Of a stretch of DNA of 64,000 nt, positions 20,493 through 63,951 are shown in pieces. Every line of letters starts with the position of its first letter. Position 1 is the first letter of the stretch. The notes under the pieces were generated by a model. The model was given only the letters and a program-made list of their open reading frames with translations, did not search any database and was not told the DNA's origin. Source of the stretch: a virus; the IMG/VR virus record IMGVR_UViG_3300005529_000001, positions 144,882 to 208,881 of that record. The stretch is one strand, 5' to 3'. The position numbers and the translations under genes are program-made.

Positions 20493-21258
20493 CTCCCAAC
20501 AAGCGAGGTGTCTTCGTCACAAGCTCACGCATCTCACTGGCAAACGTCAGCATGATTTGTGGACCAAGCTTCTTCCAACGTGACCGGAACAGCGCGACAA
20601 CGACGCCCTCAAACGTCCGTGTGTCCTGGGCTGACGCTTTCTTGCCAAACACCTTGTGAACGATGGTGTCCGGGTCGCTGCTGACGCGGAAACGACAATT
20701 AGTTTTCCAGTCTTTCAGGACCCGCCCGTTCTTTCCCCTTTTCGTCTGCTTGACTTCAAACAGTCCCATGTCAAAGTCAATGCACCACCTGTAACGTTCA
20801 AGGGGAGAGACGCTGGGCCACTTCTCTTCTGAGGCAAAACGGGTTATGACGTTTAGCAACACGTTCCGAGCCACGTTCTTGACGTGGCTGTAATCTGGGT
20901 GCTTTGGGTCTTCTGATGTGCCTGCTCGGGCCCACCGAAGGTATGTTGGATCACCCAGCATGATGTCGACTTGATATCCAGGGTCTTCTGCACCGTAACA
21001 CACAGACACGATGTTGCCACCGACCCGACGGGTGTTATGCTTGCCGAAGTGCTGGGCGATGGCTTCATACGCTTCTTCAGGGGTTCCCTTAAACTTGCAA
21101 GCAACATCGATGTCGCCCATCAGCTGCTTCTTGCCAGTGGTACCGATTGGCTCTGGATCTGTCAAACCTGCCATCGCTAGATCACGTTGCAGCTGCGGCC
21201 ACTCCCTCTCAAACATCTCAAGGGTGATGGGTTCGATGGTGTCAAACCTGTTACACAT
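20443..21258 (-). CDS. Pol-beta-superfamily-like nucleotidyltransferase candidate
   Basis: GKKQLMGDIDVACKF fits the minimal nucleotidyltransferase G[GS]x9-13DxD pattern. The start is set at the internal ATG (MCNRFD) with a GGAG SD. The 105-aa upstream extension is R/S-rich and overlaps the neighbour. Confidence 0.35.
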   Translation of the reverse strand: MCNRFDTIEPITLEMFEREWPQLQRDLAMAGLTDPEPIGTTGKKQLMGDIDVACKFKGTPEEAYEAIAQHFGKHNTRRVGGNIVSVCYGAEDPGYQVDIMLGDPTYLRWARAGTSEDPKHPDYSHVKNVARNVLLNVITRFASEEKWPSVSPLERYRWCIDFDMGLFEVKQTKRGKNGRVLKDWKTNCRFRVSSDPDTIVHKVFGKKASAQDTRTFEGVVVALFRSRWKKLGPQIMLTFASEMRELVTKTPRLLGDEPEKALEYIDALAGG

Positions 21259-22471
21259 GCTGCATCTCCATCTTCGGGATGTCCTTGCGACCGAACTTGA
21301 ACAGCGCCATGATCTGGTGAGCGGGAGCAAAAGCTCCTGTGAACTTGTATGCTTGGCCCTTGTAGAAGAAGACGATTCCCTCCATCGCCGCGGCCAGGTT
21401 CTCGACGCTGCCCAGGCGTGACATCTCCTTCCGCAGGACTGCCATGGCTGCCTGGTGCCCGCTAGCCTGGATTGTCTCGATGGCTCGAGCGAGGTATGCC
21501 TGCAGCCTCGCAACCTCTGCGTCGGATCGGGAAATGAGTGACGATGGCAAGCCCCGCAACACTTCAATGGCAAACGCGTGGATCGTCTTCTCGATAGGTG
21601 CCAAGTACTTGGGCTTCAGCACCTCGTCGCTATGCCGGACAAAGACCTGGATCTTCTCGTGGAGTTCCTTGGGAGCGACACGCTTGATAGTGATGACAGT
21701 GGGCGCCCCGGGCCTGCCCACCACACGTTCTAACGTCATCTTGGCAACGACGCCGGGTAAGTCGAGAGCCCTGACATCAAGTTCCAGACGTTTGTTGAGA
21801 TAGTCGTAGATACTGGCGCCTTCGGTAACGCCGGCAACGACCATCGCCGCTTCAAATTGCCAGAACGCCTTGTTCACGACCGAGAAAGGTAGCGTCTTGA
21901 GCTTCAAGCCGACAGGGCCACGGACATGCCAGTCCTTGACGGTCACCGCCTGCTGCATCCTGTCCAGCTGGCTGAGCATCAGCTCCAAACCACGGTTGTC
22001 GTCAACCTGCGTGAACTCGTCACCGGTTGCCTGATAGATGGGCCAGCTATGGAAAACGACGCTGTTGGAGTCGTATGTGATGACGTTGGGGTCAGCCGCG
22101 TAGATGATCTCCATCGAGTACCAGCGGTGACCGCCCTTGAAGATCCACTGACGTTGCCTGTCGCTCAGCGAGTTCAGAGCTTGGGTCAACACCTTGAAGG
22201 CATCGTTGAACGCGGTCTCGACGTTGCCCCTGCCAAAGAACTTCTTGGCCAACGCTGCAGCGTCCATGCCCCCGCTCCTGATGTCATTGGGATTTCGGGC
22301 GACCCTGAGCACCTCACCGTCACAGGTGAAGACGAGGTTCATCCCATCAAGCTTCTCGGTGACCCCCTCGAGTTTTCCAGCTGCCGCAGAGGCAAGCACT
22401 TCCTTGATCTCGCCAAAGGTGAGACCTAGGTTCTCGTAGAGGTGTTGGAGATGGCCTGCTGCGCCACCCAT
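21251..22471 (-). CDS. ATP-dependent polynucleotide ligase-like protein (probable RNA ligase; KxDG adenylyltransferase)
   Basis: EKLDGMN matches the covalent nucleotidyltransferase motif I (KxDG[ILMV]). 406 aa. Overlaps the downstream gene by 8 nt. Confidence 0.5.
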   Translation of the reverse strand: MGGAAGHLQHLYENLGLTFGEIKEVLASAAAGKLEGVTEKLDGMNLVFTCDGEVLRVARNPNDIRSGGMDAAALAKKFFGRGNVETAFNDAFKVLTQALNSLSDRQRQWIFKGGHRWYSMEIIYAADPNVITYDSNSVVFHSWPIYQATGDEFTQVDDNRGLELMLSQLDRMQQAVTVKDWHVRGPVGLKLKTLPFSVVNKAFWQFEAAMVVAGVTEGASIYDYLNKRLELDVRALDLPGVVAKMTLERVVGRPGAPTVITIKRVAPKELHEKIQVFVRHSDEVLKPKYLAPIEKTIHAFAIEVLRGLPSSLISRSDAEVARLQAYLARAIETIQASGHQAAMAVLRKEMSRLGSVENLAAAMEGIVFFYKGQAYKFTGAFAPAHQIMALFKFGRKDIPKMEMQHV

Positions 22472-22475
22472 GGCA

Positions 22476-23022: not shown

Positions 23023-23031
23023 ACAAGTGTT

Positions 23032-24176: not shown

Positions 24177-24208
24177 GATCTTCTCCTGTGATAACTAGGA
24201 GGTTCGAG

Positions 24209-25564: not shown

Positions 25565-25571
25565 CCCAACA

Positions 25572-28230: not shown

Positions 28231-28231
28231 T

Positions 28232-28636: not shown

Positions 28637-28648
28637 ATGCCCGGGACG

Positions 28649-33244: not shown

Positions 33245-33805
33245 CTATCGCCGGGCCAGAGCTTGGTAGATGGCTTCCTGCAGGGTCAACACCTCGACCC
33301 CAGCGCTTTTCAGGAGATCGATCCCATCAGTGATCCGATACGGGATCTCATAGACGACTCTGGCAATCTCCGCGTTGACGATCAGCTTCGCACACTCCTT
33401 GCACGGGCTGTTCGTCACGTACATGTGCTTCGGTCTGGCAAAGTTGTAGTCGCACTTGACGAGAGCGTTGACCTCAGCGTGGACAGTGCCGCTCTTCCCG
33501 CGTTCGAGCGATTCAACGTGATTGGGACCGCCCTTCCACATCCCGTTGTACCCTACGCTGAGCATCTGCGTGTTGTTCGACGAAACGACGATCGCTCCCA
33601 CTTTCAATGCCGGGTCGATCGAGCGCAAAGCGATTGTCTTTGCGACCTGCATCCAGACTGACGGCCAGGTCGGACGTTCGGGTTCCTTGTCCTCAACGAG
33701 AACAGTCAAGCAGAACTTGCACGTCTGCCCACCGGCATCATTCTCCACCCAATGATGGAAGATGTCTTTGGTGTTTGCTAGACACGCTTCGTTTAGGTTT
33801 CCCAT
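33245..33805 (-). CDS. dCMP deaminase (zinc-dependent cytidine/deoxycytidylate deaminase family) with N-terminal extension
   Basis: HAEVNAL (Zn His/Glu) and SPCKECAKLI (PCxxC). Resembles T4 Cd. Confidence 0.75.
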   Translation of the reverse strand: MGNLNEACLANTKDIFHHWVENDAGGQTCKFCLTVLVEDKEPERPTWPSVWMQVAKTIALRSIDPALKVGAIVVSSNNTQMLSVGYNGMWKGGPNHVESLERGKSGTVHAEVNALVKCDYNFARPKHMYVTNSPCKECAKLIVNAEIARVVYEIPYRITDGIDLLKSAGVEVLTLQEAIYQALARR

Positions 33806-34980
33806 CAAGCCCCCACCATGGATTGGAACAACTCGCTCTCAAGGCGATGGATTTCCTGGCCTAGCGCTTTGCCCGAAAACCCCTGTGCCATCAGGGGCTC
33901 ACCCCTGAAAGGCTCAGAGCCCAGGTACCGCAAGAAAGCATCGAACTCTGCGTTCGAGGGCATCCCGCGAGCACGAACGTACTCAACGTACATCGTGAAG
34001 GCGTCATCTTCTGACATGCCCAGGGCTTTCTCGGCCTTGCGGAGCTTCAGAGCGGTGTCCTTCGTGATGTTACGGAGCCGGAGCAAGAACGTGACTTGCG
34101 CGACCTCGTCAACCGAGTACTTCAGGTGAAGCAGCTTTTTCCCCAACGTCTCAAGGTTCTCATCATCCAAGATGAGAGCTAGCACGACCGGGACGGTGTT
34201 GGAATCGACCCCACGCGTAGACACGAGGTTGTCCAGGTACGTTGACACTTTGAGCCCGGGCAGCACCCGATCCCACAACCCCAACGACGTCATGAGGTTC
34301 ATCAACCGTTGTGGTTTCTCAGCTGCTACGATCGACTTGACAAGCTCGTCCCGGACCCGTTCAAACGAGACGCCATCAAGGTTGTTGTCACGCTGAATGG
34401 CTGCGAACGTTTCTTTGGAGATCTCAAAGCCGAGCTTGACTGCGAACCTGATGGCTCGCAACACCCTGAGCCTGTCTTCGGCAAACCTGTCCTCGGGACG
34501 TCCAACCGTCCTGATGACCTTGTGACGAATGTCATCGAGCCCGCCGACTAGGTCAACGACCTCTTGCGCGGTGATGTCATAGAACAGAGCGTTGATCGTC
34601 AGGTCCCGACGTTGCACGTCTTCCTTGATCGTCGCGAAGCGTACCTGTGGGTGGCGACCCGCGCTCAGGTCCTCACGGAACGTTGCGATCTCGTACTCCT
34701 CGGAAGGAGACCCATCGTGGGTGTACGTCCTCGTTCGGATGACGCCGAAAGCCTTGCCGACTGCATCCGTTAGCCATCGTCCCGTGGTGTGGAGCAAGCG
34801 CTCCACTTGGTCAGGAGTGGCATCAGTTGCGAGGTCGAAATCCTTGGGCTTCTTGCCCATCACCGCGTCACGCACTGCACCACCGACCAGGTGCAGTGCG
34901 TAGCCATTCGTATGAAAGAGCATCGCCAGCGATTTGACATCGCTGTGCAAGTCAATCTTGAGAGGCTGACGGACTACCAT
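33805..34980 (-). CDS. cca: CCA-adding enzyme / poly(A) polymerase-family tRNA nucleotidyltransferase
   Basis: Class II head domain LVGGAVRDAVMGKKPKDFDLATDATP. 391 aa. Confidence 0.7.
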   Translation of the reverse strand: MVVRQPLKIDLHSDVKSLAMLFHTNGYALHLVGGAVRDAVMGKKPKDFDLATDATPDQVERLLHTTGRWLTDAVGKAFGVIRTRTYTHDGSPSEEYEIATFREDLSAGRHPQVRFATIKEDVQRRDLTINALFYDITAQEVVDLVGGLDDIRHKVIRTVGRPEDRFAEDRLRVLRAIRFAVKLGFEISKETFAAIQRDNNLDGVSFERVRDELVKSIVAAEKPQRLMNLMTSLGLWDRVLPGLKVSTYLDNLVSTRGVDSNTVPVVLALILDDENLETLGKKLLHLKYSVDEVAQVTFLLRLRNITKDTALKLRKAEKALGMSEDDAFTMYVEYVRARGMPSNAEFDAFLRYLGSEPFRGEPLMAQGFSGKALGQEIHRLESELFQSMVGA

Positions 34981-35012
34981 GCGGTCATCCTACCATCGTT
35001 GGTGGTTGGTTT

Positions 35013-35594
35013 TCACTCTTTCGCGATGTTCGCTCGTTTGTCAACGGCAAGATGGTGGCGAAAGCAACGCGGCTCATAGAGCTCCGCGCCACCGACCTGG
35101 ATCTCCTCGCCGTCTGTCTGTTTCTTGTGAGTGTAGAAAGCGTCACGCCCACATTCAGTGCAGACCGCTGCACATTTTTCGACATGCGTTGCCCAAGCCA
35201 TCAGCTTCTCGACCTCGTGGAATGGCTTGCCCAGGTATGACAGGTCCAACGTTGAGACCACGACATCGATGCCGAGCTGGTAAAGGTAGATCAGGACGTC
35301 GGCGACGCCCGGGATCATGAACGCTTCGTCAACGGCAACCACCTCGGGCATCTGTTCCGCTTCCGCAAGCGCGCCCAAGATGTCTGACCCCTCCTTGACA
35401 AGGGTAGCATCGTGTTTCCAGCCCGAGTGACTGACAACCTCAGTGTTGCTGTACCTGGCATCGATCGCGGGCTTGAAGACCTGGATTCGCTTGTGTTGGT
35501 ACTTGGCACGCTCAAGAGCGAGCAACAGTTTCGTCGTTTTTGACGAGAACATTGCGCCCGCGAAGACCGTCAGCGTTGGGTTCTGCCCGCTCAT
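35013..35594 (-). CDS. tdk: Thymidine kinase
   Basis: P-loop FAGAMFSSKTTKLL, VDEAFMIPG, C-terminal Zn ribbon CxxC...C. Confidence 0.75.
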   Translation of the reverse strand: MSGQNPTLTVFAGAMFSSKTTKLLLALERAKYQHKRIQVFKPAIDARYSNTEVVSHSGWKHDATLVKEGSDILGALAEAEQMPEVVAVDEAFMIPGVADVLIYLYQLGIDVVVSTLDLSYLGKPFHEVEKLMAWATHVEKCAAVCTECGRDAFYTHKKQTDGEEIQVGGAELYEPRCFRHHLAVDKRANIAKE

Positions 35595-36148
35595 GCGAAC
35601 CTATGTTCCAGGATGACGAAGGGAGCGCGGCACACCGAGTCATACCTTGCTGCAGCCTCAAGGGCTAACGTGATTCGTTTCTTTGGGTCCATTTGCATGT
35701 CTCTTGTCGCGTACATTGCCCCGTTGGCAACTTGCGCGCCCACACCGATGCAACAGTAATCATCCTGAGGACAACCAACATCAAAATCTTCTTCGATGGA
35801 ATAGAGCTTGCCGTTGTATCCCACCAGCAACCCAACCGAGTGAAACTCTTCTTCGTCTTCCCTCTTCAGAGATCCTTTTTCCTTGTGCAACTCTCTGACA
35901 GCATCGATGAAGTTGATGACCATGTAAGCCATGTCATCGTGCTTCTTGGGCTTGTCAGGTGCTTCGAAAGCGTACCGCAACAGCTGTCCCACACGGAAGC
36001 TTCCCGCAAAACCTATGATGAAGTCACCGTTGATGAAGACTTTTTCGTCAGCCCGGCCGAGAACAGAGGTGCCTTTCGTATCGGATGCCAACGAATCAGC
36101 ACCCATATAGATCACGCCGTTCTCGACCAAGCCAACGATACAGGTCAT
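35591..36148 (-). CDS. HslV-like N-terminal-Thr peptidase (proteasome beta-type Ntn hydrolase), copy 1
   Basis: MTCIVGLVENGVIYMGAD, ADEKVFINGDFIIGFAGS and CIGVGAQVANGAMYA align with HslV TTIVSVRRNGHVVIAGD / [20 protein letters not shown] / IAIGSGGPYAQAAARA. Thr follows the initiator Met. Confidence 0.6.
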   Translation of the reverse strand: MTCIVGLVENGVIYMGADSLASDTKGTSVLGRADEKVFINGDFIIGFAGSFRVGQLLRYAFEAPDKPKKHDDMAYMVINFIDAVRELHKEKGSLKREDEEEFHSVGLLVGYNGKLYSIEEDFDVGCPQDDYCCIGVGAQVANGAMYATRDMQMDPKKRITLALEAAARYDSVCRAPFVILEHRFA

Positions 36149-36152
36149 GGAC

Positions 36153-36722
36153 TCAGTTCCGGTTCTTCACCACCAGCGTATCGAACGGTGGAGCACAGCC
36201 TGCGTTCTTGGTAGAAGCTTCGAGTGCCATGAGAACACGCTTCTTGGCGCCGCCCCACATTTTCTTGGTCGCTTCGAACGAACCGAGCGCCAGCTTGCTG
36301 CCGCTGCCGACAGAAGCAAACTTCTCATCGCCTTCGACCAGCTGAAAGTTACCCTCGAGCGTGTAGAGATGGCCACGATAAGCGACCAACATCGCGCCTT
36401 CAAAGCAGATCTCACCGTTACCGCCGAATGGGCTGTTGTCAGGACCCGCTGCGTCGAGCTTCTTGAGGCCCTCGCGGATCGCTGGAACTAGCTCGGTCAC
36501 TAGGAACTGCCTATCATCGCCGCCTGCCTGGATGGGCAGCTCGATGCCATGTTTTAGCGCGTCCATGACCTTGGGCAGGCCGCAGACACCAAAGCCCACA
36601 TCGCCCTTTGCAAAGATCTTGGGCTCCTTGAGCAAGGTCCTATTGAGACCGCCATCCGTGGCCGCCCGATCTCCGCCGAGCCACACCTTGTTCCCATCAA
36701 CCAAACCGACTATGCAGGTCAT
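36153..36722 (-). CDS. HslV-like N-terminal-Thr peptidase, copy 2
   Basis: MTCIVGLVDGNKVWLGGD, KIFAKGDVGFGVCG, GSGSKLALGS. Paralog of 35591-36148, 4 nt upstream. Confidence 0.6.
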   Translation of the reverse strand: MTCIVGLVDGNKVWLGGDRAATDGGLNRTLLKEPKIFAKGDVGFGVCGLPKVMDALKHGIELPIQAGGDDRQFLVTELVPAIREGLKKLDAAGPDNSPFGGNGEICFEGAMLVAYRGHLYTLEGNFQLVEGDEKFASVGSGSKLALGSFEATKKMWGGAKKRVLMALEASTKNAGCAPPFDTLVVKNRN

Positions 36723-36901
36723 GACTTGTTCTCCGAGCTTGACTTCTTGGTGTCCTGTTCACCGGCAACGTACGACGACCAAGCGATCAACGTCATCGCG
36801 TTGAATGCTTCGCCAGTGTAGCCGAGTTTCTTTGCTGCCTTGATCGCTTTCGTGATCGACGAAGCGAGTGTATCACGCCAAACAGTGTTGTCTTCGCTCA
36901 T
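36719..36901 (-). CDS. Hypothetical small protein
   Basis: 60 aa. GGAAGG SD. Overlaps the stop of the upstream gene. Confidence 0.3.
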   Translation of the reverse strand: MSEDNTVWRDTLASSITKAIKAAKKLGYTGEAFNAMTLIAWSSYVAGEQDTKKSSSENKS

Positions 36902-36904
36902 TAG

Positions 36905-49300: not shown

Positions 49301-50171
49301 CACGGTTCACCAGGTTCTGGGCTGGCAGCCGGTTGAACTGGAGCTCGAGGAAGTAGTTCCCCTCGCCGACGGCTTCCACCATCGAGTCATAGACGTTGGC
49401 CACAGCCTGGACGCACTTGTCCATCAAGACCTTGTCATCCAACAGCTTCTCGCTGAACTGGTCGAACTGGATCTTCTGCATTTCCTGGAAGACTGCGTAT
49501 GCCGGCATCCCACCGATGCAGGCTGAAGTGACGACCAGGTTACCGTCCTTGCCTGCCTCACGCAGGACCTTCCAGTCGACGCGGGGAAACTTGTAGAACC
49601 CGTTTAGGTATGCCTTGGACGAAGCCGCGAAGATTTGTTGGAGGCCCCTCTGGTTCTTGGGTAGGATGACGAGATGATGCCGACGATTGATCGGGTTGAA
49701 GTGCTTGGTTGACTTGGTTTCGTCCTCATTCTCAACAGTCAACGCATTGGTTGTCTCGATCTCTTCGGTCTCATCGGCCTGATCAACGACTGCGATGACC
49801 TTGGTCGGCAGCTCTTCTTCTTTGTCTTTTAGCTTTTTGGCAACTTTCTTGTCGAGCTTCGCCTTTTCAGCGGCTTCGTAATCACGTTGCCATTGCTCAA
49901 GGTCGGGATGATAGTACGCCTCGATGCCTGGGATGTACTTGAACTTCTTGTCCTTGTTGGACTTGGACCAGTCCTCGATCCAGAGCTGAGCATGCGCGTA
50001 CGAATTTAGGTTCCCGTGTTCCGTGATGGCATGGGCATCGATGCCGTTTGCCATGCAAAACTTAAAATGCTCGTCAGGATACCCCAGCCCGTCAAACGGT
50101 GAAAAACCCGTGTGATTGTGAAGACCAACAAAGCGATTCGGGACCCTGGACATGTGTGTCCATCGTACCAC
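46362..50171 (-). CDS. dnaE: DNA polymerase III alpha subunit (DnaE-type C-family replicase) with N-terminal PHP domain
   Basis: PHP motif LHNHTGFSPFDGLGYPDEHFKFCMANGIDAHAITEHGN. 1269 aa. Polymerase core region GRGSGGGSLVAYVLYITDLDPL and others. Confidence 0.9.
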   Translation of the reverse strand: MVRWTHMSRVPNRFVGLHNHTGFSPFDGLGYPDEHFKFCMANGIDAHAITEHGNLNSYAHAQLWIEDWSKSNKDKKFKYIPGIEAYYHPDLEQWQRDYEAAEKAKLDKKVAKKLKDKEEELPTKVIAVVDQADETEEIETTNALTVENEDETKSTKHFNPINRRHHLVILPKNQRGLQQIFAASSKAYLNGFYKFPRVDWKVLREAGKDGNLVVTSACIGGMPAYAVFQEMQKIQFDQFSEKLLDDKVLMDKCVQAVANVYDSMVEAVGEGNYFLELQFNRLPAQNLVNRAIIEFCRRNNKTQQLIVTGDAHYFNPDRWKDRELYKKLGWMNYTEINADSLPKSKEQLKCELYPKNAQQMWDEYCISKDGTGFYDDDLIADAIERTHDIAHQVIGEVPPDRSPKFPNKLLIPEGTPSFNHLVKLCMDGMRKRGLQDRPEYIDRIKEELGVIKQMKNADYFISYQKIMELARKVCLCGPGRGSGGGSLVAYVLYITDLDPLFWDLPFARFLSVYRKGAPDIDTDLADRDKVLEQLRGFFGWENVVPISNYNTFKLKTLVKDIGKFYGVSFEETNAATRSVEDEVRKATMKEGDDKNLFVLTYDEAMGFHCKAPKTAVSKSVCQGCTESCNTPVSPSFRSFIDKNPVVAESIKILFKQNRSLGRHAGGVLIADDLPNKMPLVTSKGDGGKREPQSPWVEGVNYKHLEKIGEFIKYDLLGLETLRLIERTIELILIKEGKPHAFDDVKAWYEEHLHPSRVNFNDPKPYEVYEKAKWGGIFQLTSQGAQRLFVKAKPKSIIDIATLTSIYRPGPLAAHVDKLYLEAKNDGKELEWGDHRINDILKKTNSCIIFQEQVMELAEKVAGFPKDKCDEVRRAIMKRSISGGEAAKKAAQETRDGFVQGCIKNGYTDKVANNLYDKILYFAGYGFNKAHAVAYAIDSFWCAWLMTYYEEQWLSAYLEAYSTTPVKRAKAFGEARALGYTIVPIDINHAGLGWTVLPGKKLMPSMTSVKGVGESAVEEIIQMRPINSIEEMLWNEDGTWRPSKFNKKALEALIKIGAFESVGCIGEDKVFKSYKHMHETLLGEYTDTVEKKKGTGIMVERVREHAALIRRSTKKDPHEGRKNFYELARALAETDARDEWTNRERVEFNAFYFGTSDPTQMFEQAMLSKLDKMGVIPIEDLEHGDNRFCWFVTVLAAGKKGGKPTAGLQKKTKKGKGYIQAFVTGPVGKPVRLTVWGREDLYEPFKLMAAEVRRDDYGFATSAYKVKEIA

Positions 50172-56605: not shown

Positions 56606-56992
56606 TCATTTGAAGGTAATCGAGTGACCGCAGCCACACCGTGACGCTTCACGAGGATTGTCAAACTCAAAACCCTGCTTCATCAACGTCTTTGTCCAAC
56701 TCACTGTTGAACCCGACAAGTAAATGGCTGACTTCTTGTCAACCATGAAAATCAAGCCGCCCTCTTGCCATGAAATGTCCCTGAGTCCGGGCATGTCGTA
56801 CTCGAAACCAAGGTAGTAAGTGAAACCCGAGCAACCCCCGCCCGTCAGCCCAAACCGGTAACCCACAGGACCCATTCCGGGATCCCTCTCGCCCAGCGCC
56901 AGCTGCTTCTGGAACTGCTCGAGGGCCTCAGGAGTAATCTTGACGACGGGGTCCATTGCCACACCGTACCGAGAACGCAAATTCTTGTTCAA
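56606..56992 (-). CDS. IscA/HesB/ErpA-type iron-sulfur cluster insertion protein
   Basis: GGGCSGFTYYLGF and C-terminal CGCGHSITF signature Cys residues. Confidence 0.7.
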   Translation of the reverse strand: MNKNLRSRYGVAMDPVVKITPEALEQFQKQLALGERDPGMGPVGYRFGLTGGGCSGFTYYLGFEYDMPGLRDISWQEGGLIFMVDKKSAIYLSGSTVSWTKTLMKQGFEFDNPREASRCGCGHSITFK

Positions 56993-57942
56993 GCCATCGC
57001 AAAGTCAAACGATACCATGCCGGTGTCAGCATCCATGGTGCACATCGCGCCGACGGGCACCGGGATCGTCCAGTCACCGTGAGAGAAGCTATAACCGTAC
57101 ACGCAAGGTGGTCCCTCGCTCAGGTACTGCACCAAGACGTCATCGATGCTTGGGACTTTGCCGTCACGCTTCTGGGGTACGTCGCAGAACTCCCCGACCA
57201 CGATGCCCGCGATCTTGTCAAGGACTCCGGCGAGCCTACAATGGATCAGGAGACGAGCGATCACCTCTCCGTCCTTGTGAACGTCCTCGATGAAGAGGAT
57301 CGCGCCTTCAAAATCAGGACAGAATGGCGAACCGAGCAACGTGCAAAAAGTGTCAAGGTTGCCACCGATGATGTGGCCCCGGGCTTTTCCGGGTGATACC
57401 GTCCTGGGCATGTATTGGTTGATGGTGAAGGGCTTCTGCTCCCATGGCTCGGGCGACATCATGAACTGCGTCGCAAACCGCAACGACTCTTCGTCGGTGT
57501 AACGAAAGTGTTGGCCCTCGTCAACCCGGATCGCTGGGTACTGCCCGTTGATGCTGATCAAGCCCGCTCCGGCAAGGATGCCGTTGTTTAGAGCGGTGAT
57601 GTCGCTGAGGCCGATGAGTGCACGTTGGCTCTGGCGGATCGCGCCATAATCAAGGTACGGGAGCAGCTCACCTGAACCCATGCCGCCGAGACAGGTATAG
57701 ATGCCCTCGATTCCTGGCGCGGTGAATGCCCACATCAGCTCCTCCACCCGGTCCATCAAGGGGGCCGCGTGGATGTCTAACGTGTTGAGGGTCTTGACAT
57801 TCTTGCCCAAGACGGGCTCTAAGCCACATTCCTTGATGATATCAAGGCCAGCAACGAGCTCGTCAGTCCGGATGGGCGAAGCAGGAGCAACAATGGCTAC
57901 ACGCGCACCAGGGTTGATCCTCTTGGGAGCGATGAAGGGCAT
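56989..57942 (-). CDS. Peptidase S66 family LD-carboxypeptidase (LdcA/MccF-like)
   Basis: N-terminal ARVAIVAPASP motif typical of S66. Start set at the ATG (MPFIAPK), 5 nt downstream of CCTACTTAG. Overlaps the IscA gene start by 4 nt. Confidence 0.6.
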   Translation of the reverse strand: MPFIAPKRINPGARVAIVAPASPIRTDELVAGLDIIKECGLEPVLGKNVKTLNTLDIHAAPLMDRVEELMWAFTAPGIEGIYTCLGGMGSGELLPYLDYGAIRQSQRALIGLSDITALNNGILAGAGLISINGQYPAIRVDEGQHFRYTDEESLRFATQFMMSPEPWEQKPFTINQYMPRTVSPGKARGHIIGGNLDTFCTLLGSPFCPDFEGAILFIEDVHKDGEVIARLLIHCRLAGVLDKIAGIVVGEFCDVPQKRDGKVPSIDDVLVQYLSEGPPCVYGYSFSHGDWTIPVPVGAMCTMDADTGMVSFDFAMA

Positions 57943-57947
57943 CGACC

Positions 57948-57956
57948 CTAAGTAGG
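57948..57956 (-). promoter_or_regulatory. CCTACTTAG promoter-like motif upstream of S66 peptidase gene
   Basis: Minus-sense gaCCTACTTAGggtcgATG. Confidence 0.3.
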
Positions 57957-58892
57957 TCACTTCGGGGGCATGCGGCGATGGATCTCCTGCATTGCAAGGT
58001 CGTACTTTAGGGGCTCCTGGAACCAGGTTGACAGCTCCAACAGCTGCTCACCCGTCATGTGTCGCATCGCGGGACCCAACATGGTCTGTATGACTTTGGG
58101 CGAAGTCAGGATGAACCTTCGTAGTTTGTCGAGCCTCTGGAGACGCTCGTCGTTCGGGTTGAGCTTCTGGATGTCTTCGATGTGGGAGGCTTTCCAGTCA
58201 AGCGTCTTTGATACGAGACGCATGATGTGATCCGCGACGGCGGGGGTCACGCTCTGGTAACGTTTGCGATGCAGCCATTTGAAGACGCGGTTTATCGTCC
58301 ACTTAGACTCCCACGTCACAACGTGAAGCATCCTCTCGCGTTCTAACATCTCCAGGTGCTCTGGGAAGACGAGTGAGTCTTCTGTCACCGCGACCATGCC
58401 GTTGTAGATGTCAAATCGTGATAGCTGTTCGACGATGGGCGCCACGTACTGGGTGATGACTTGGACACGCGCATCCCCATCAACTAGGTACTCAATCGCA
58501 GTGTTCGTCACTGTTGGAGTGATCTGTAACCCAGTCAACGACAACAACTTGGGAGAGTGCGTGAACGCCGTCAGGTTCTTCACGTGTGGGAACCAAACGT
58601 CAATGTCACCGCATCCAGCGTTTTGAAAAGGGCCAAGATCTGCGTCAAGTCGCTTTGGAGCACCTAGATGCATGCGAACTGCGTTCCATAACTCACCTTC
58701 ATCCGGCATGGGTTCCAACAACCCAAACTGGTTCCGTGCCAGGATGTTGGCAAAACCACCCGCGATATAACCACCGTTCTCGAATGCTGCTTCGAGCAAG
58801 GTCCTCGTCGTACGCTTCAGCGTAAAATTGTTAGCCATCATCTGAAGGAATGGCTTTGGAAGCTTGACGGTCTTGAAGTTCAGATCTTCCAT
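57957..58892 (-). CDS. Hypothetical protein with possible nucleotidyltransferase-like GGx...GDIDV motif
   Basis: GGYIAGGFANILARNQ...GCGDIDVWF fits the GG/GS...DxD minimal NTase pattern. 311 aa. Confidence 0.35.
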   Translation of the reverse strand: MEDLNFKTVKLPKPFLQMMANNFTLKRTTRTLLEAAFENGGYIAGGFANILARNQFGLLEPMPDEGELWNAVRMHLGAPKRLDADLGPFQNAGCGDIDVWFPHVKNLTAFTHSPKLLSLTGLQITPTVTNTAIEYLVDGDARVQVITQYVAPIVEQLSRFDIYNGMVAVTEDSLVFPEHLEMLERERMLHVVTWESKWTINRVFKWLHRKRYQSVTPAVADHIMRLVSKTLDWKASHIEDIQKLNPNDERLQRLDKLRRFILTSPKVIQTMLGPAMRHMTGEQLLELSTWFQEPLKYDLAMQEIHRRMPPK

Positions 58893-59680
58893 GACACGTC
58901 CACACCATCAAAACGCTTCTGCATCGTCTCGATGGCCCAGGGACTCGTGTCAGCTAACGTAAAGCTCCTGCCATGGACATGTGCAGCATCGCCCGTTGTC
59001 CCACTACCAGCGAACACGTCCATGACGTGGCCGCCCGGTGGGCTGCTGGCAAGCACCGCTCGTTCGATCAACAACCTGGGCTTTTGGGTGGGGTATCCGT
59101 TCCGTTCTTTGGCGTTGGTCCCAATGATACCGATGTCCCAAACGTCAGTGGGAACCTTGCCAAGAGCGATCCTCTCCTCAGCTTCTTCAGGTGACCTGCC
59201 CACGCGTTGCATCTCAGGTGCCTTGTAGGGTACCCGTGGGATGTCATCCCAGCTGAAGATGTGCTGGTCTTCTTCGCGCGAGTAAACGAGGATGTTGTCG
59301 TGTTTCTTGGGCCAGCATCGCTTGCCTCGGCCTCCAAAATCATAGGCCCAGATGATCTCATTCAAGAAGTTCTCAGCACCGAAAACTTCATCGCACATAA
59401 CCTTGGCCCGATGGACCCAGTGATGGTCGAGGTGGAGATACATGCTGCCAGTTGGCTTCAACACACGTCGGATGCCCTCAACGTGCATCTGCAACCAAGC
59501 AACGTAGTTCTTGTTGGGATCCTCGAACTCGACAAAGCTCATCACCTCACCCGCTTTCTTGCGAGCAAGGGTCTGCTTGTGTCCGGTACCAAACGGCGGG
59601 TCAATGTAAACGAGATCCACGCTGGCTTCGGGCGTCTGTCCAAGAACGCCCATCGCGTTGCAGTGCCAGACAGTGTTCAC
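58880..59680 (-). CDS. DNA N6-adenine/N4-cytosine methyltransferase (beta-class)
   Basis: Motif IV VDLVYIDPPFGTG near the N-terminus and motif I VFAGSGTTGDAA near the C-terminus (beta permutation). Confidence 0.7.
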   Translation of the reverse strand: MNTVWHCNAMGVLGQTPEASVDLVYIDPPFGTGHKQTLARKKAGEVMSFVEFEDPNKNYVAWLQMHVEGIRRVLKPTGSMYLHLDHHWVHRAKVMCDEVFGAENFLNEIIWAYDFGGRGKRCWPKKHDNILVYSREEDQHIFSWDDIPRVPYKAPEMQRVGRSPEEAEERIALGKVPTDVWDIGIIGTNAKERNGYPTQKPRLLIERAVLASSPPGGHVMDVFAGSGTTGDAAHVHGRSFTLADTSPWAIETMQKRFDGVDVSWKI

Positions 59681-59683
59681 TTT

Positions 59684-60109
59684 TCATCCACCAAACGGGT
59701 TCTCGTTCTCAGAGACCGTTGTCGCTGTGGCTGTCCCCGGAGACGGGGGCTGGATGAATGCAGCCGCGTTGTTCTGCAGCTTCGCAATGACTCCCTCGAG
59801 CTTCTTCGCCACTTCATCTGCTGCAGCGACGCACTGCTCGATCGTCTGGGTCGCGGTCACCAGGCGACGGACCATCGTTGCTTTCTTGGCTTGGTCCCAC
59901 TTCTTGGCCTTTTTGCGAGACATCAGCTCCTCAAGGCGCTCCTTTCGGAGGGTCGCTGCCCTGAGCGTGTGCTGGATGTAAGCAAGCTGGTACTGCAACA
60001 CCATCGGGTGGTCTTGCGGGACCTCAGCTGCTGGTTTCTGTCCCGTAACAGGCTGTGTCTTCTTGGAGACGGGCAGTGCCGTCGGTGACCTCAACGTGCT
60101 CTTGCGCAT
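59684..60109 (-). CDS. Hypothetical protein
   Basis: 141 aa with a coiled-coil-like middle. Overlaps the second methyltransferase ORF. Confidence 0.3.
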   Translation of the reverse strand: MRKSTLRSPTALPVSKKTQPVTGQKPAAEVPQDHPMVLQYQLAYIQHTLRAATLRKERLEELMSRKKAKKWDQAKKATMVRRLVTATQTIEQCVAAADEVAKKLEGVIAKLQNNAAAFIQPPSPGTATATTVSENENPFGG

Positions 60110-60913
60110 GGTTTGAAACTACCCACTGGCCATCACCAAGTTCACGTAAATGCTTCAACCTGTGAAGCATCTGTTCGAAGATCTCTTCGTCCTTTTCGAT
60201 GACAACGAATCTGCGACCGAGTTTACGAGCAGCAAGCGCTGTCGTCCCCGCACCCGCAAACGGGTCAACGACCCACTCACCCGGTTGGGTGTGGACTTCA
60301 ATGGGAACCTCGATGACACGTTGGGCTTTCTGAGCATCATGGACCTTCCCGCGCATCACCTCGGTCACGTCAGTCCAGACATTGGTTCGCCTGTAGTGCT
60401 CGCTCTTTGCTGGGTATTTCGCGTTGTACCCAGCGTAACCCCGCTTCTCCTCGAGAAGCGGGATGTTGAAGCACCTGGGTTTCTTGATGTCAAGCCCATT
60501 GATGAAGTAAGCACACTCTTCTCGGGTGAAAAGGTAGTTGTGCTTGACACCATAAGCACGTTTCTTTTTCCACGTGATCAAGTTTGCTAGACGAAGCGAT
60601 GTCTCTTCTTCGACCCTGACAAGGTAGCGGAAGAACGGACGAAACTCGGGCGTGCCGATGCCGCCCCAGACATAGAATGCAGCGTTCGGAAGCAACACCC
60701 GTTGCCATTGTGACGTCCAGTACATCATCCAATGGACGAACCTTGTGTCGGGTTCCATGTACTTGTCCCAATATGCGGGCAAGATGTTTCCATAAGGAGG
60801 ATCAGCAACGATCAGTGGCACATCACCAGTGAGCAAACGAATTTGGAGGGGAGTGTCAGCTTGTGCTGAGTCAGCACAGATCGCGTATCCCCCGTCAACT
60901 TTTTCGATCCTCA
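60024..60913 (-). CDS. DNA N6-adenine/N4-cytosine methyltransferase (beta-class), second copy
   Basis: Motif IV LIVADPPYGN and motif I VVDPFAGAGTTALAARKLGRRFVVIEKDE. Start set at a GTG with a GAGGTGG SD. The longer ORF's R-rich N-terminus overlaps the phosphoesterase gene in another frame. Coordinate uncertain by 1-2 nt. Confidence 0.6.
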
Positions 60914-61738
60914 CGCCACCTCTACCAGACCCGCCAAACCAGGATGCCCGTACTCGGCTCCACCGACCATCACCCTGAGGTTCGGCAAGATCTTTCCTTC
61001 GTACTTGCCGTGTGTGTGCCCTGCGAGCACGGTAAAAGTGACAGCCGGGTACGCTCTTGCAGCGTCCATCAGCATGTCTCCCATCATCTTGCTGGTGAAC
61101 CACGGCATCACATGGGGTTCACCTGGCCTGCCCTCATGGACGTGAGCTTGCGCAAACGGCGGGTAGTGAGTCAGGATGACCAGGTTCTTGTGGTAACGGA
61201 CCGCCTGTTTGATGCTGTTCTGTACGTAAGTCACACCTTCGTGTGCATATTTCCGTGCCAGAGACGCGATCGTGGCTTTGCTCCCGTTGACCTCAATGAA
61301 GTCATGGATAGCATGCCAATCCAGCATGTCAAACGAGCTGTTCTGCCAGTCGCCGTAGAGCGCATCGTACCAGCCATCATGGCCCAGGACCGCCGTTTGG
61401 CCCGACAGACCGGGACCGTTCAACGCGACGTACGGGACTGTCGGCAAGTACCGCAAAAACGGGCTAGCGTTGGTGAGGTCTTTCATCAACCGCCGGACTT
61501 CTTCGACTCGAGCACCATAGTAGTCATGGTTCCCCAACACGAAGTAGATCGGTCGCTTGCAGATCTGTTCAAGAGCGCCCAAGTGATATGCCAGCAGCTT
61601 TGCCACCGACAAATCACCGGTCAGGAAGACCCCCGTCGGGGCCTGTTGGACCAGTGACTCACCAAACTGGATGATGCGTTGCCTGTCGTCCCCGAGATGA
61701 TCGAGGTGAATGTCTGTTGCCCATGCGAACTTCGCCAT
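60911..61738 (-). CDS. Calcineurin-like metallophosphoesterase
   Basis: DIHLD, GDLS, GNHDYYG, ILTHYPP and GHTHG: the full metallophosphatase motif set. Confidence 0.7.
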   Translation of the reverse strand: MAKFAWATDIHLDHLGDDRQRIIQFGESLVQQAPTGVFLTGDLSVAKLLAYHLGALEQICKRPIYFVLGNHDYYGARVEEVRRLMKDLTNASPFLRYLPTVPYVALNGPGLSGQTAVLGHDGWYDALYGDWQNSSFDMLDWHAIHDFIEVNGSKATIASLARKYAHEGVTYVQNSIKQAVRYHKNLVILTHYPPFAQAHVHEGRPGEPHVMPWFTSKMMGDMLMDAARAYPAVTFTVLAGHTHGKYEGKILPNLRVMVGGAEYGHPGLAGLVEVA

Positions 61739-61770
61739 GCAATGATCTTACTGCACGGGCGTTACTCTGT

Positions 61771-62475
61771 TCAGTCACGGAGATCCGAACGATTCTCGAA
61801 TGTTGGATCGTAAACTTTTTTGATGAATGCCAACAAGTCGTCCTCGTTAGCGACGTGGAACTTCTTGCAATTCCACTTCACATTTTCGGGTTTAATGTCG
61901 ATCTTGTCGACGCTCTCTCCCAACAAGACGTTGTAGTCGGCTTGGTCGCAAATCCGTTCACGGAGGTGGGGGCGCAGCCTCACCGCGTCCATATAGACTT
62001 CACGGTAATGGATCGCATCGTGCAATGCGCACCGAGCAAAGAAATCGGGCGGGGCTTCGTCACTAAATTCAGCAAGCATCGCAACCAGCTTACTTGACGG
62101 GTGACAGTAGATTTTTTCTCCGCCATCGAGGCGGCGCTGGCGGTCCTTGAGCCACATCCACTTCCGTTGGACCAAGTCGGGATCGGCGAGCTTGCAATAG
62201 ACCCTGACGTACCAAAACTTTTCCTTGTACTGATCGACAGAGATCGTAGACGTCCACGGGTTACCCTGCCCGTTGATCGTTGGGTACGGGTGTTGGAGCC
62301 GTGCACCAATGAACTCTGCGATGGGTCCGATCAACTCGAAGTTCTCTTTGGCTTCTTTGCACTCGTTGGTTTCGTGCCCACGCTCAAAACACCGACGGCA
62401 AACGGGTACTTGGAACTCATTCATGTCAGAAATCCTGGATTGGTTGAGGGGTCCCGTTATTGGGATCGCTACCAT
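61771..62475 (-). CDS. Hypothetical protein with Zn-knuckle
   Basis: 234 aa. CRRCFERGHETNEC. Confidence 0.4.
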   Translation of the reverse strand: MVAIPITGPLNQSRISDMNEFQVPVCRRCFERGHETNECKEAKENFELIGPIAEFIGARLQHPYPTINGQGNPWTSTISVDQYKEKFWYVRVYCKLADPDLVQRKWMWLKDRQRRLDGGEKIYCHPSSKLVAMLAEFSDEAPPDFFARCALHDAIHYREVYMDAVRLRPHLRERICDQADYNVLLGESVDKIDIKPENVKWNCKKFHVANEDDLLAFIKKVYDPTFENRSDLRD

Positions 62476-63151
62476 CGCTCAGGGGCGTCGTTGACGGGCT
62501 CGCGCACTCGGCAAACTGAGGGATCTGCCATGGTTCAGCACAACCCGTTGAAAACCTGATGAGGACATCCTTGTAGAGGTAAAAGTTCGGGCACGTGATC
62601 AGCTTGTTTGGGCACGCGATCCCGGCACGCCACCGGCACGGGCACTGGGCAGTGGGAAGCTCTCCCTTGTTCCAACACCCGACGTTTCCAGACTCGACCG
62701 GTTTTGGCAACACCTGCTGCGTTCCATCGCAATTCAACACCCAGTCACCTGCAATTTTGACAACAAAAGACTTCTTGTCGATGGGCAAGTTAATGTGCGT
62801 GCCCTTCTCACAGTATGAGACTTGAGCAAACCCATCTGGGATGACTCCATCTGGGAAGTTTTTTGCCAAGCACGCTTGGACTTCGTTCGTCAGACGATCG
62901 ATTAGCTCTCCGGAGATGTTCTGTCCTGAGGGATCAAATGGGGTCCCCTCGGGAGTCACCATCGTCGGATTGACGTCATACCTGTCAAATTCATGTTGAG
63001 TGTAACCCAACCACACCTCGTTGCAAGAACCCGCATCGCTCGATGCTATGTCACCGCTGCTGCAACTGGTCACGGCTGTTCCCGTTGACCCGTAAAGAAC
63101 GGTCACGAACAACACGGAAAGACCACCGACAATCCAGTTCTTTAGCTTCAT
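62426..63151 (-). CDS. Secreted Cys-rich protein
   Basis: Signal peptide MKLKNWIVGGLSVLFVTVLYGSTGTAV. 15+ Cys. TATGATACAAT -10-like element upstream. Confidence 0.4.
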   Translation of the reverse strand: MKLKNWIVGGLSVLFVTVLYGSTGTAVTSCSSGDIASSDAGSCNEVWLGYTQHEFDRYDVNPTMVTPEGTPFDPSGQNISGELIDRLTNEVQACLAKNFPDGVIPDGFAQVSYCEKGTHINLPIDKKSFVVKIAGDWVLNCDGTQQVLPKPVESGNVGCWNKGELPTAQCPCRWRAGIACPNKLITCPNFYLYKDVLIRFSTGCAEPWQIPQFAECASPSTTPLSDGSDPNNGTPQPIQDF

Positions 63152-63951
63152 CCGAACATTGTATCATACGCGCCATCGATCAAGCGGTTCGGGACGATAG
63201 GCCTGTTGAGCCAGTGTTCCTCTTGGTCCATGATCGAGTTCGTAAATGAACTACGGACAAACTTGTAACGACCCAGGACATGGTCAGCGTCCTCCCACTT
63301 GATGTAAAGGCCCTCCATCAGTTCGCTGTGGTCGGTGTGACCCCACGCCTCAGCAGCTACGACTCCAGCTGCTTCGCATGCGTTGTTGAAGTTGAGGATA
63401 CGTTCCGTAGTGACAAAATGGCTACGATGGATGTAATCGCTGAGATCTTTCAGGTGTTCAAACTCACCCACGCCTAGAACCTTGACGGGATACGCAACGT
63501 CGCTAGCAAAACGAAGCAGCTTGTCACGGGCTGGCGTAGACAGGAACTTGTCGGTCTCGGTGTCCAGGACGTCGAACTCCATGAAGTAGTGGGGCAGCGC
63601 ATCGTAGAACATGGTGTGTTTGGCATACATCCACTCGCCATACATGATGTAACGAGTGCCCAACAGCTGGCGTAACTCGCTCTGACGAGCGTTGGCCCAC
63701 GTCTTTAGCAGGTCGAAGTGCTTTTCACGAGGTCCACCACGTAGGTAGTGCCCGCGTGACTGGATCAGTAGTTTGCCATCTTCATCGAAGCTGATGCCTG
63801 CATTGGCACCGTCCATTTTCTCTTCGAGAACGAGACGCACGCCACGAAGATCGTCCCAAGGAACAGCTTCAAGATCATGATCTCCGTGTTGGAATCGTGA
63901 TCCTCTTACATGTGCTGTCCGCGGATACTTTCGCATCTCAGGAGAGATCAC
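63148..63951 (-). CDS. ATP-dependent RNA ligase (Rnl-type, KxDG)
   Basis: N-terminal KYPRTAHV and EEKMDGAN (motif I KxDG) as in the DraRnl/NgrRnl-type RNA ligase family. 267 aa. Confidence 0.6.
   Translation of the reverse strand: MISPEMRKYPRTAHVRGSRFQHGDHDLEAVPWDDLRGVRLVLEEKMDGANAGISFDEDGKLLIQSRGHYLRGGPREKHFDLLKTWANARQSELRQLLGTRYIMYGEWMYAKHTMFYDALPHYFMEFDVLDTETDKFLSTPARDKLLRFASDVAYPVKVLGVGEFEHLKDLSDYIHRSHFVTTERILNFNNACEAAGVVAAEAWGHTDHSELMEGLYIKWEDADHVLGRYKFVRSSFTNSIMDQEEHWLNRPIVPNRLIDGAYDTMFG

Follow-up and report, generated by a model that had tools for sequence, protein, structure and literature searches.

The window analysed here, 64,000 nucleotides (nt) of viral DNA (IMG/VR virus record IMGVR_UViG_3300005529_000001, positions 144,882 to 208,881), encodes two different ligase-like proteins together with a phosphoesterase, a small kinase and a tRNA nucleotidyltransferase-type enzyme, which raises the question of whether these genes form one repair system or more. 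The window is part of a ∼370-kb jumbo-phage (bacteriophage) genome, an assignment based on its gene content (phage lysozyme, DNA polymerase III alpha, 5'-3' exonuclease, thymidylate synthase, thymidine kinase, dCMP deaminase and DNA methyltransferases) and supported by IMG/VR, where relatives lie on viral contigs as long as 309 kb. An earlier note on this DNA had combined five open reading frames (ORFs) into a single dispersed tRNA-repair system, in which the two ligases would act against different anticodon nucleases. All five ORFs were recovered on the minus strand, with coordinates and quoted motifs exactly as reported there:

63148-63951, minus: stand-alone RNA ligase, 267 amino acids (aa), of the PF09414 (Rnl2-type) nucleotidyltransferase family, the predicted sealing enzyme of cluster A
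60911-61738, minus: calcineurin-like metallophosphoesterase, 275 aa (Metallophos, E = 4.9e-8)
41721-42272, minus: P-loop kinase, 183 aa, of AAA_28 type, judged to lie outside both repair sets
33805-34980, minus: enzyme of the class II tRNA nucleotidyltransferase/poly(A) polymerase family, 391 aa, stand-alone, between thymidine kinase and dCMP deaminase
21251-22471, minus: LIG-like protein, 406 aa, a predicted covalent nucleotidyltransferase of the ligase superfamily, first gene of block B

Our analysis distributes these genes differently. With moderate confidence, we regard the window as holding portions of two separate break-repair gene sets, A and B, plus a lone enzyme for tRNA 3' ends. Set A, to which the 267-aa ligase belongs, is very probably a T4-type heal-and-seal RNA repair kit, judged by homology. 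Set B, headed by the LIG-like protein, may be a distinct trim, fill and seal module for breaks in duplex nucleic acid, a reading for which, taken jointly with that of set A, we see the balance as about even. The single dispersed system appears quite improbable, for reasons given below with the evidence on each of its members.

The RNA ligase and its healing enzymes

The 267-aa protein matched the Pfam family RNA_ligase (PF09414) with an E value of 8.5e-33 and a score of 114.3 bits against a cut-off of 27, over profile positions 3-160 of 171, and a PHROG RNA ligase with an E value of 1e-17. The peptides KYPRTAH and EEKMDGAN were confirmed in it, and its identification as an Rnl-type RNA ligase is thus borne out. 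In an alignment of eight sequences, with identities down to 30%, the residues K45-M-D47-G48, G105-E106, E213-G214-LYIK and R228-Y-K230 were invariant, and the HNH-fused RNA ligase of HGTV-1 aligned with 94% of the length of the protein. The gene has a GTG start, preceded by a GGAGGAGAGG ribosome-binding site. T4 Rnl2 sensu stricto needs a C-terminal helical domain of ∼100 aa for nick sealing, and just ∼45 residues follow the nucleotidyltransferase domain in the 267-aa ligase (Pfam envelope 40-222 of 267); for this reason it was filed as a member of the PF09414 family and not as an Rnl2 orthologue. Compared with the T4 ligases it is minimal, with neither the C-terminal domain of Rnl2 nor the tRNA-binding domain of Rnl1.

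The genes beyond position 64000 were read from gene calls on the 369,506-bp metagenomic contig ena:ERZ27279688:k141_1055159 (L002), which also encodes the 406-aa protein with 100% identity. They place the healing enzymes just past the right edge of the window (window-equivalent coordinates are used for them below), and the ligase and its flanks read as follows:

68819-69508 (window-equivalent), minus: second metallophosphoesterase, 229 aa (Metallophos, E = 1.1e-11)
67721-68782 (window-equivalent), minus: RlaP nucleotidyltransferase, 353 aa (RlaP, E = 3.9e-19)
65737-66726 (window-equivalent; L002:5013-6002), minus: Pnkp, 329 aa (AAA_33, E = 4.5e-18, and HAD_PNKP, E = 4.5e-40)
63938-64000, minus: 3' end of a 283-aa ORF with no family match, overlapping the ligase start by 14 nt
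62426-63151, minus: 241-aa protein, Cys-rich and with a signal or lipoprotein-like peptide at its N terminus, separating the RNA ligase from a Zn-knuckle ORF

The Pnkp and RlaP genes lie 1.7-4.8 kb past the window edge (L002:2231-6002, including the second metallophosphoesterase). Pnkp, which carries the T4 Pnk-like motifs GSGKS..NRDDLR and DSDLDGT, is encoded 1.8 kb upstream of the ligase, and Pnkp, RlaP and the second metallophosphoesterase are all on the ligase strand, 1.7-5.5 kb upstream of it. The order of set A is metallophosphoesterase, RlaP, FA_hydroxylase-like protein, p140, Pnkp, small ORFs, RNA ligase, (Zn-knuckle ORF), metallophosphoesterase, and the window holds just its ligase end, that is, the RNA ligase and one phosphoesterase.

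This arrangement is conserved. Six of the eight IMG/VR relatives of the ligase keep the order RlaP, FA_hydroxylase-like protein, p140, Pnkp, (variable ORFs), ligase, (Zn-knuckle ORF), 275-aa metallophosphoesterase, methyltransferase, and a seventh (L042), truncated upstream of Pnkp, shows Pnkp, ligase and metallophosphoesterase. Pnkp accompanies the ligase in 7/8 relatives, and the homologue of the 275-aa phosphoesterase is found 0-2 genes downstream of the ligase in 7/8, immediately adjacent in L045 and L047. No homologue of the Cys-rich 241-aa protein was found in the eight related loci (phmmer, E ≤ 1e-5). Neither this protein, which is Cys-rich and secreted, nor the 234-aa Zn-knuckle ORF, both located between ligase and phosphoesterase, qualifies as a missing kinase.

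If homology with T4 Pnkp and Rnl-type ligases is a guide, the kinase domain of the set A enzyme would phosphorylate 5'-OH ends and its HAD domain would take off 2',3'-cyclic or 3'-phosphates; RlaP would restore one or two lost nucleotides, and the 267-aa ligase would seal the resulting 3'-OH/5'-PO4 break via a Lys45-AMP intermediate, with the 275-aa metallophosphoesterase maybe serving as an additional end-cleaning enzyme. Repair operons of the Pnk-HAD/RlaP/RNA-ligase kind have reportedly been described by Burroughs and Aravind. Set A resembles such operons (PMC7824862) in combining Pnkp, RlaP and an ATP-type RNA ligase on one strand within ∼6 kb, with a CCA-type enzyme elsewhere in the genome, and it resembles T4 tRNA repair (Pnkp with Rnl1/Rnl2) in its bifunctional Pnkp, an NRDDxR kinase joined to a DxDGT HAD phosphatase. 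Unlike T4-type kits, it is flanked by two calcineurin-like phosphoesterases and has no tRNA genes nearby. RlaP is known to add one or two nucleoside monophosphates (NMP) onto damaged RNA 3' ends (PMC12776372), and jumbo phages commonly combine more than one RNA ligase with Pnk, phosphoesterases, RlaP and a CCA enzyme (PMC7824862, Iyer et al. 2021). Set A is in this sense conventional, the idea of an RNA repair toolkit in jumbo phages being already established. The claim that this phage encodes T4-like heal-and-seal RNA repair therefore stands, with Pnkp, RlaP and the ligase clustered mostly outside the window, and the kinase and phosphatase assignments made from within the window were misplaced, because the true healing enzymes lie just past its edge.

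Several observations weigh against this picture of set A. The lambda-phosphatase/CthPnkp class has the signature DxH, GDxxDR and GNH[ED]. The 275-aa phosphoesterase, which matched PHROG 1649 (metallo-phosphoesterase, E = 2.9e-16) and, weakly, TIGR03729, shows the motifs DIHLDH, GDLS, GNHD and GHTHG, and GDxxDR and GNHE are absent from its sequence as read by eye. The synteny of set A was seen among fairly close relatives (62-77% ligase identity), so that it may reflect shared descent, and L046, the most distant relative (50% ligase identity), is without the set A partners. Finally, scans for tRNA genes and Rfam elements gave no match across the ∼72 kb covered, namely the window and three flanking loci. 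The synteny with the ligase in 7/8 relatives makes membership of the 275-aa phosphoesterase in the repair set plausible, and it is a possible end-processing member of cluster A; the link is suggestive and not proven, because the synteny is among close relatives and L046 has no such partners. Of what had been proposed for this protein, the Metallophos fold and the association with the ligase are retained, and the comparison with the 2',3'-phosphatases of Pnkp-type systems is not, given the lack of GDxxDR, which also counts against a single system of five genes. Downstream of the ligase, L046 has other ORFs (L046:4747-8094) that by eye resemble a ThiF/E1-type Rossmann protein, an HD-domain protein and a DHH-type phosphoesterase, and these may represent an alternative end-healing set.

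On the other side of the phosphoesterase, the following genes were found:

60024-60914 and 58880-59680, minus: N6/N4 DNA methyltransferases, immediately downstream of the 275-aa phosphoesterase
57957-58892, minus: weak Gad2-like protein
56989-57960, minus: LD-carboxypeptidase

The methyltransferase at 60024-60914 overlaps the stop of the phosphoesterase and is syntenic with it in all 7 relatives that have the phosphoesterase.

The LIG-like protein and its partners

The second ligase-like protein proved to be of another kind. The peptide EKLDGMN was confirmed in the product of 21251-22471, and this 406-aa protein had no match among Pfam, PHROG, NCBIfam or Protein Data Bank (PDB) sequences, including PF09414, PF09511 and the DNA-ligase hidden Markov models (HMMs). 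Classification by HMM thus separates the two ligases, the 267-aa protein falling in PF09414 and the 406-aa protein in no DNA-ligase or RNA-ligase family. Its AlphaFold model shows a nucleotidyltransferase of the ligase superfamily with RNA ligases nearest: fold comparison gave 8.9 for NgrRnl, 8.5 for REL1, 8.4 and 8.0 for Rnl2, 8.0 for Trl1, 7.8 for Rnl1 and 7.7 for Rnl3, with DNA ligases reaching at most 6.8 and capping enzymes at most 5.8, and Foldseek was concordant. About 180 residues of the model align, corresponding to the nucleotidyltransferase core. An all-helical domain of ∼160 residues (about 196-353) is inserted between motifs IIIa and IV, and the OB domain is absent. The hhalign comparison with the phage's own PF09414 ligase gave a probability of 17% over 47 columns, around motif I only.

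Conservation was counted over 143 representatives of the family with a mutual identity of at most 50%. K40, D42 and G43 were present in 142/143 and G68, E121, H141, E364 and K376 in 143/143; in the N-terminal GGxxGHLxHL peptide, H7 was found in 134/143 and H10 in 139/143. The family is large: a threshold of E ≤ 1e-3 gave 2,071 cluster representatives, and one of E ≤ 1e-30 gave 1,021. It appears mainly viral, since 33 IMG/VR loci were found against a single match, in a metagenome-assembled genome of Bdellovibrionota, among 185,579 cellular species, both scans using patterns that detect close relatives only.

Judging from the model, the LIG-like protein falls in the ligase superfamily without being a canonical ATP-dependent DNA ligase, because it has no OB domain, no DNA-ligase HMM match, and RNA ligases as its closest folds. 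It is RNA-ligase-like in fold, yet lies outside the named families Rnl1 to Rnl5. Unlike Rnl5 (Naegleria NgrRnl, Deinococcus DraRnl), it has no N-terminal OB module; unlike T4 Rnl2, it has no C-terminal domain and carries instead the helical insert and the N-terminal GGxxGHLxHL peptide; and it does not belong at the sequence level to the family of Rnl5, T4 Rnl2 or trypanosome REL1. The description of this ORF as a second KxDG ligase-like protein is therefore upheld, with the addition that it represents an undescribed family.

The partners of the LIG-like protein in block B are co-directional with it (18339-22471, minus), in the order LIG-like, PolX-like, module X plus NMNAT/PPAT-like, NUDIX:

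20443-21258, minus: PolX-like nucleotidyltransferase, 271 aa, its start overlapping the LIG-like stop by 8 nt
19377-20411, minus: module X, the N-terminal ∼345 aa of a 529-aa protein (18822-20411), a putative PD-(D/E)XK-type nuclease by motif only
18822-19376, minus: HIGH-superfamily (NMNAT/PPAT-like) adenylyltransferase domain, the C-terminal ∼185 aa of the same protein
18339-18767, minus: NUDIX hydrolase, 142 aa (NUDIX, E = 3.9e-20), the next co-directional gene and a possible accessory

The overlap between the first two genes is followed by gaps of 31 nt and 54 nt, and a promoter and terminator scan of the block gave site counts equal to the shuffled expectation.

The PolX-like protein shares 49% identity with the last ∼290 residues of LIG-PolX fusion homologues of 690-710 aa. 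Its model (predicted local distance difference test score [pLDDT], 92.6) is closest to family X polymerases, with CD-NTases and TUTases at most 8.0, and shows a Pol-beta-type palm plus thumb and fingers with three catalytic carboxylates; the sequence has an invariant GS-type motif and three invariant aspartates. It had no Pfam match, its family profile had no match among PDB sequences, and the N-terminal 8-kDa domain is absent from the model. RlaP (PF10127) was considered for this protein and rejected, with no Pfam match and an hhalign probability of 1% against the phage's own RlaP.

Module X, for its part, has the invariant residues GxGPGE (G145, G147, E148) ... D166 ... E176-x-K178, from which it was classed as a putative PD-(D/E)XK nuclease. 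The HIGH domain carries GAYKPYHAGH (HxGH) and VSGTQMR (SxTxxR), with H23, H26 and R148 invariant and S143 nearly so, and its profile matched archaeal NMNAT (MJ0541) in the PDB with an E value of 5.8e-8, PPAT with 6.8e-7, NadR with 1.8e-6 and NadD with 1.4e-5. The PDB sequences nearest to the 142-aa NUDIX protein are DIPP, Ap4A hydrolase and Dcp2-type enzymes, and a NUDIX gene occupies the same relative position in L004 and L005.

A functional link between the LIG-like protein and these partners is supported by their fusions, which were counted among the top 145 family representatives with domains delineated by purpose-built HMMs. The LIG-like domain stood alone in 45 proteins and was joined to a PolX-like domain in 16, to a HIGH domain in ∼45 and to module X in at least 13. 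In the ∼45 HIGH fusions, the adenylyltransferase domain follows directly after the LIG-like domain and begins with G[GA]FKPPHxGH (phmmer E values down to 4.5e-38), whereas in cyanophage Mel-JY01 and in L035/L036 a HIGH-like domain is N-terminal to it. Two proteins, P0349 and P0384, unite PolX-like, LIG and HIGH domains in a single chain. An iterative HMM search found module X fused C-terminally to the LIG-like domain in L008, L014 and 13 representative proteins. Unfused copies were found in 12 loci (10 distinct), no more than ∼1 kb downstream of LIG(-PolX); in L015 the copy is encoded on the opposite strand. A Pfam scan of nine long LIG-like fusions left the extra domains unmatched, besides weak CTP_transf_like matches and one Peptidase_M23. 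The latter belongs to P0337 (1288 aa), in which an N-terminal Peptidase_M23 domain (E = 6.9e-21) and ∼470 unassigned residues precede LIG-like and HIGH domains; this protein may be virion-delivered. One relative carries a LIG-like and module X fusion (L008) and an Rnl cluster (L047) on the same contig, so that the two ligase systems coexist.

In Microcystis phage Mel-JY01 (complete, 190 kb; L050:11243-13162, L051:16200-18632), the HIGH and LIG-like fusion lies 2.6 kb upstream of the large terminase and is annotated 'cytidylyltransferase like protein'; the same phage has a separate cluster of an AAA-protein, an RNA-ligase and tRNA-Leu. No coding sequence of Mel-JY01 is annotated as a DNA ligase, in a genome where ∼80% of the genes are 'hypothetical'. 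A phmmer search with one archaeal-virus DNA ligase, of low sensitivity and with NAD+-dependent ligases not queried, found no match in Mel-JY01, the window or L002.

These architectures bear on two rival accounts. For the single tRNA-repair system, it could be said that the second ligase is structurally nearest to RNA ligases and that the multiple RNA ligases of jumbo phages have been proposed to be non-redundant (PMC7824862). However, the partners of this ligase are PolX-like, PD-(D/E)XK-like and NMNAT/PPAT-like, and no tie to tRNA genes was seen, so that the suggestion of a second ligase directed against a second tRNA-targeting nuclease was not supported.

The other account is that the three nucleotidyltransferase folds of block B form a nucleotide or cofactor pathway and not a repair system. 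They would make an NAD-like or AppN-type adduct (a 5' cap, or protein or nucleic-acid adenylylation) or salvage NAD+ against NAD+-depleting defences, with the KxDG protein as a carrier of AMP or NMP. The commonest fusion partner of the LIG-like domain is indeed an adenylyltransferase and not a polymerase, many family members have no PolX-like partner, the M23 peptidase of P0337 would be odd in a repair enzyme, and the neighbouring NUDIX gene echoes NadM (NMNAT-Nudix). NadM and NadR NMN (nicotinamide mononucleotide) adenylyltransferases take part in phage NAD+ salvage (PMC9503650, PMC7824862), and the HIGH domain of set B is like them in its HxGH and SxTxxR motifs and its profile matches to NMNAT, NadR and NadD, with a NUDIX gene immediately downstream and an AAA_28 kinase elsewhere in the window. 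Unlike NadM and NadR, it has a ligase-like enzyme or module X as its fusion partner and not a Nudix or kinase domain, PPAT scores about equal to NMNAT, and the NUDIX protein resembles the Ap4A-hydrolase, DIPP and Dcp2 types and not the ADP-ribose pyrophosphatase class of NadM. We saw no NadV/NAMPT gene over the ∼72 kb covered. Moreover, ligase motifs I, III, IV and V are conserved as a full set in the LIG-like family, its fold is nearest to polynucleotide ligases and not to other AMP-transferring enzymes, and the PolX-like and PD-(D/E)XK-like partners indicate polynucleotide substrates. We consider a pure cofactor pathway improbable.

The kinase, the CCA-type enzyme and other genes

The 183-aa kinase had been proposed as the 5'-kinase of the repair system. 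Its P-loop kinase nature is confirmed and its part in repair is not: AAA_28 matched 26/26 homologues (best E value, 6.6e-8), whereas AAA_33, the Pnk type, matched 1/26 (E = 0.041). A PHROG 'thymidylate kinase' profile matched it with an E value of 7.4e-9, and annotators at the Joint Genome Institute (JGI) label its homologues thymidylate or deoxynucleoside kinases. The sole PDB match of its profile that extends past the P-loop is a deoxyguanosine kinase (E = 0.04); in a single-sequence PDB search the matches were confined to the P-loop, and tblastn against phages gave no match. The gene overlaps a 94-aa ORF, which itself overlaps an RNase_T/DEDD exonuclease gene (40877-42272, minus), and this operon adjoins DNA polymerase III alpha (46362-50153) and nucleotide-metabolism genes. 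The exonuclease may be the proofreading subunit of polymerase III alpha.

On its family matches, the 183-aa protein is a small-molecule (nucleoside or nucleotide) kinase and not a polynucleotide kinase, and belongs to neither set, with deoxynucleoside monophosphates, a nucleoside or nicotinamide riboside as candidate substrates. The nicotinamide-riboside kinase domain of NadR is likewise assigned to AAA_28. A true thymidylate kinase (PF02223) lies further on, at L002:1-450. For the single dispersed system this result is damaging, since the kinase sits in a replication and nucleotide-metabolism setting and the genuine Pnkp beside the ligase leaves no need for an extra one. That account retains the RNA ligase, the CCA-type enzyme and the metallophosphoesterase as real, the last syntenic with the ligase. 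Thus, of the proposed five-gene kit, the ligase and plausibly the phosphoesterase belong to an RNA-repair cluster, and the kinase and the second ligase fall outside it.

The 391-aa enzyme matched the PolyA_pol head domain (E = 5e-33) and PolyA_pol_RNAbd (E = 6.8e-10), together with a PHROG tRNA nucleotidyltransferase (E = 6.4e-56), and contains the motifs GGAVRD, DFD, RRDLTINA and EDRLR. Its assignment to class II nucleotidyltransferases is thus secure in domains and motifs. CCA addition itself, as had been claimed, is likely and not proven, because the best CCA model of NCBIfam (E = 1e-54) reached 186 bits against an equivalog cut-off of 290 and pcnB followed closely (E = 5.6e-51, 174 bits). 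Such an enzyme would restore tRNA 3' ends independently of set A.

Transcription of the window is almost wholly from the minus strand, and its G+C content is 52-60%. A megablast search with 24 kb of the window gave zero matches among 50,697 phage records, which therefore hold no close sequenced relative. Other genes include:

42319-45432, plus: 1037-aa protein with faint LRV-repeat matches, between polymerase III alpha and the kinase operon, among the few plus-strand genes
33245-38622, minus: nucleotide-metabolism run of NAD-dependent epimerase, thymidylate synthase, thymidine kinase, CCA-type enzyme and dCMP deaminase
13860-14186, minus: HIT/DcpS_C-type hydrolase (E = 6.8e-12)
9855-10697, minus: stand-alone 5'-3' exonuclease of FEN/Pol I N-terminal type (E = 3.2e-22)
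5412-5975, minus: second NUDIX hydrolase (E = 8.1e-23)

The nucleotide-metabolism run and the additional kinase hint at modified bases or remodelling of nucleotide pools. Aprataxin-type HIT enzymes strip 5'-AMP off abortive ligation products. The 5'-3' exonuclease lies ∼10 kb from the LIG-like/PolX-like block and, with polymerase III alpha, would round out a complement of enzymes for Okazaki-fragment maturation or patch repair. The ENA contig that carries the window genes stops at the equivalent of window position ∼13223; window positions 1-13223 thus come from another assembly record or from the opposite end of a circular or permuted contig. Their genes include a trypsin-like peptidase (plus strand), UDPGP, NUDIX, lysozyme and the 5'-3' exonuclease.

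Candidate substrates and roles of set B

From the folds, conserved catalytic residues, gene order and fusions described above, we infer the activities of set B, their substrate and the order of their steps. Module X would process the damaged end, the PolX-like enzyme would extend the 3'-OH across the gap, and the LIG-like protein would seal the nick via Lys40-NMP, while the adenylyltransferase domain may supply or recycle the nucleotide cofactor of the ligase, for example NAD+ from NMN plus ATP.

The substrate is most likely phage DNA or ribonucleotide-patched DNA. We lean to DNA because the PolX-like protein finds its best structural matches in gap-filling polymerases of family X, the block includes an attached PD-(D/E)XK-like module, the RNA kit of the phage is already complete with its own nucleotidyltransferase, and there are precedents. 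Modules of the PD-(D/E)XK-like kind are more typical of DNA processing, and repair by a polymerase plus a ligase is represented by African swine fever virus PolX with its ligase and apurinic/apyrimidinic endonuclease and by bacterial LigD (POL-PE-LIG). In Phaeocystis globosa virus, a giant virus, a functional PolX is fused to an NAD+-dependent ligase (PgVPolX; PMC5537341). In the ribo-patch model of Shuman, the Rnl5 RNA ligase DraRnl seals DNA nicks left by a repair polymerase, for which PolX is a candidate (PMC5397189).

Against the trim, fill and seal reading stand four points. First, an RNA substrate is equally defensible on the models, because the folds nearest to the LIG-like protein are RNA ligases and not DNA ligases and the OB domain is missing. 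Second, the PolX-like gene is absent within 4 kb in 22/33 IMG/VR loci, being confined to one subclade, and is therefore not an obligatory partner. Third, module X had no PDB profile match, and a Pfam scan of 14 members returned noise. Fourth, the role of the adenylyltransferase is guesswork, the recycling of NMN to NAD+ for an NAD+-using ligase being speculation.

The first of these points leads to the alternative that block B is a second RNA-repair pathway, comparable to RlaP plus Rnl or to kinetoplastid RET2 plus REL1. The PolX-like protein would then restore lost nucleotides and the LIG-like protein would seal structured or duplex RNA, such as a tRNA anticodon stem-loop, after module X and the NUDIX enzyme had prepared the ends. 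However, the phage already owns Rnl, Pnkp and RlaP, the PolX-like protein is structurally closest to gap-filling DNA polymerases and not to RNA-specific nucleotidyltransferases and is unrelated to RlaP, and the architectures inspected include none with a fused or adjacent healing domain of kinase or phosphatase type; together with the attached nuclease-like module, this makes the RNA version unlikely.

Returning to set B as a trim, fill and seal module distinct from set A, full-text literature searches turned up no description of a LIG/PolX-like/HIGH module, though a prior one may exist. A bolder form of this reading, which we offer tentatively and hold to be rather doubtful, is that the LIG-like protein is the founding member of a large clade of covalent nucleotidyltransferases that is as yet unannotated and essentially confined to phages, and that with its partners it makes up a self-contained machine for trimming, filling and sealing, in which the adenylyltransferase regenerates the cofactor.

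As regards set A, the finding adds one further jumbo phage with a T4-like RNA repair kit. For set B, if its proteins act together, they would represent a new type of viral break-repair system and a new structural class of polynucleotide ligase, of potential use as a reagent, and would possibly tie the cofactor supply of a ligase to the arms race between phages and bacteria over NAD+ depletion. Should the self-contained machine with cofactor regeneration be real, repair of nicked or restricted nucleic acid would continue while abortive-infection defences destroy the NAD+ or ATP pools.

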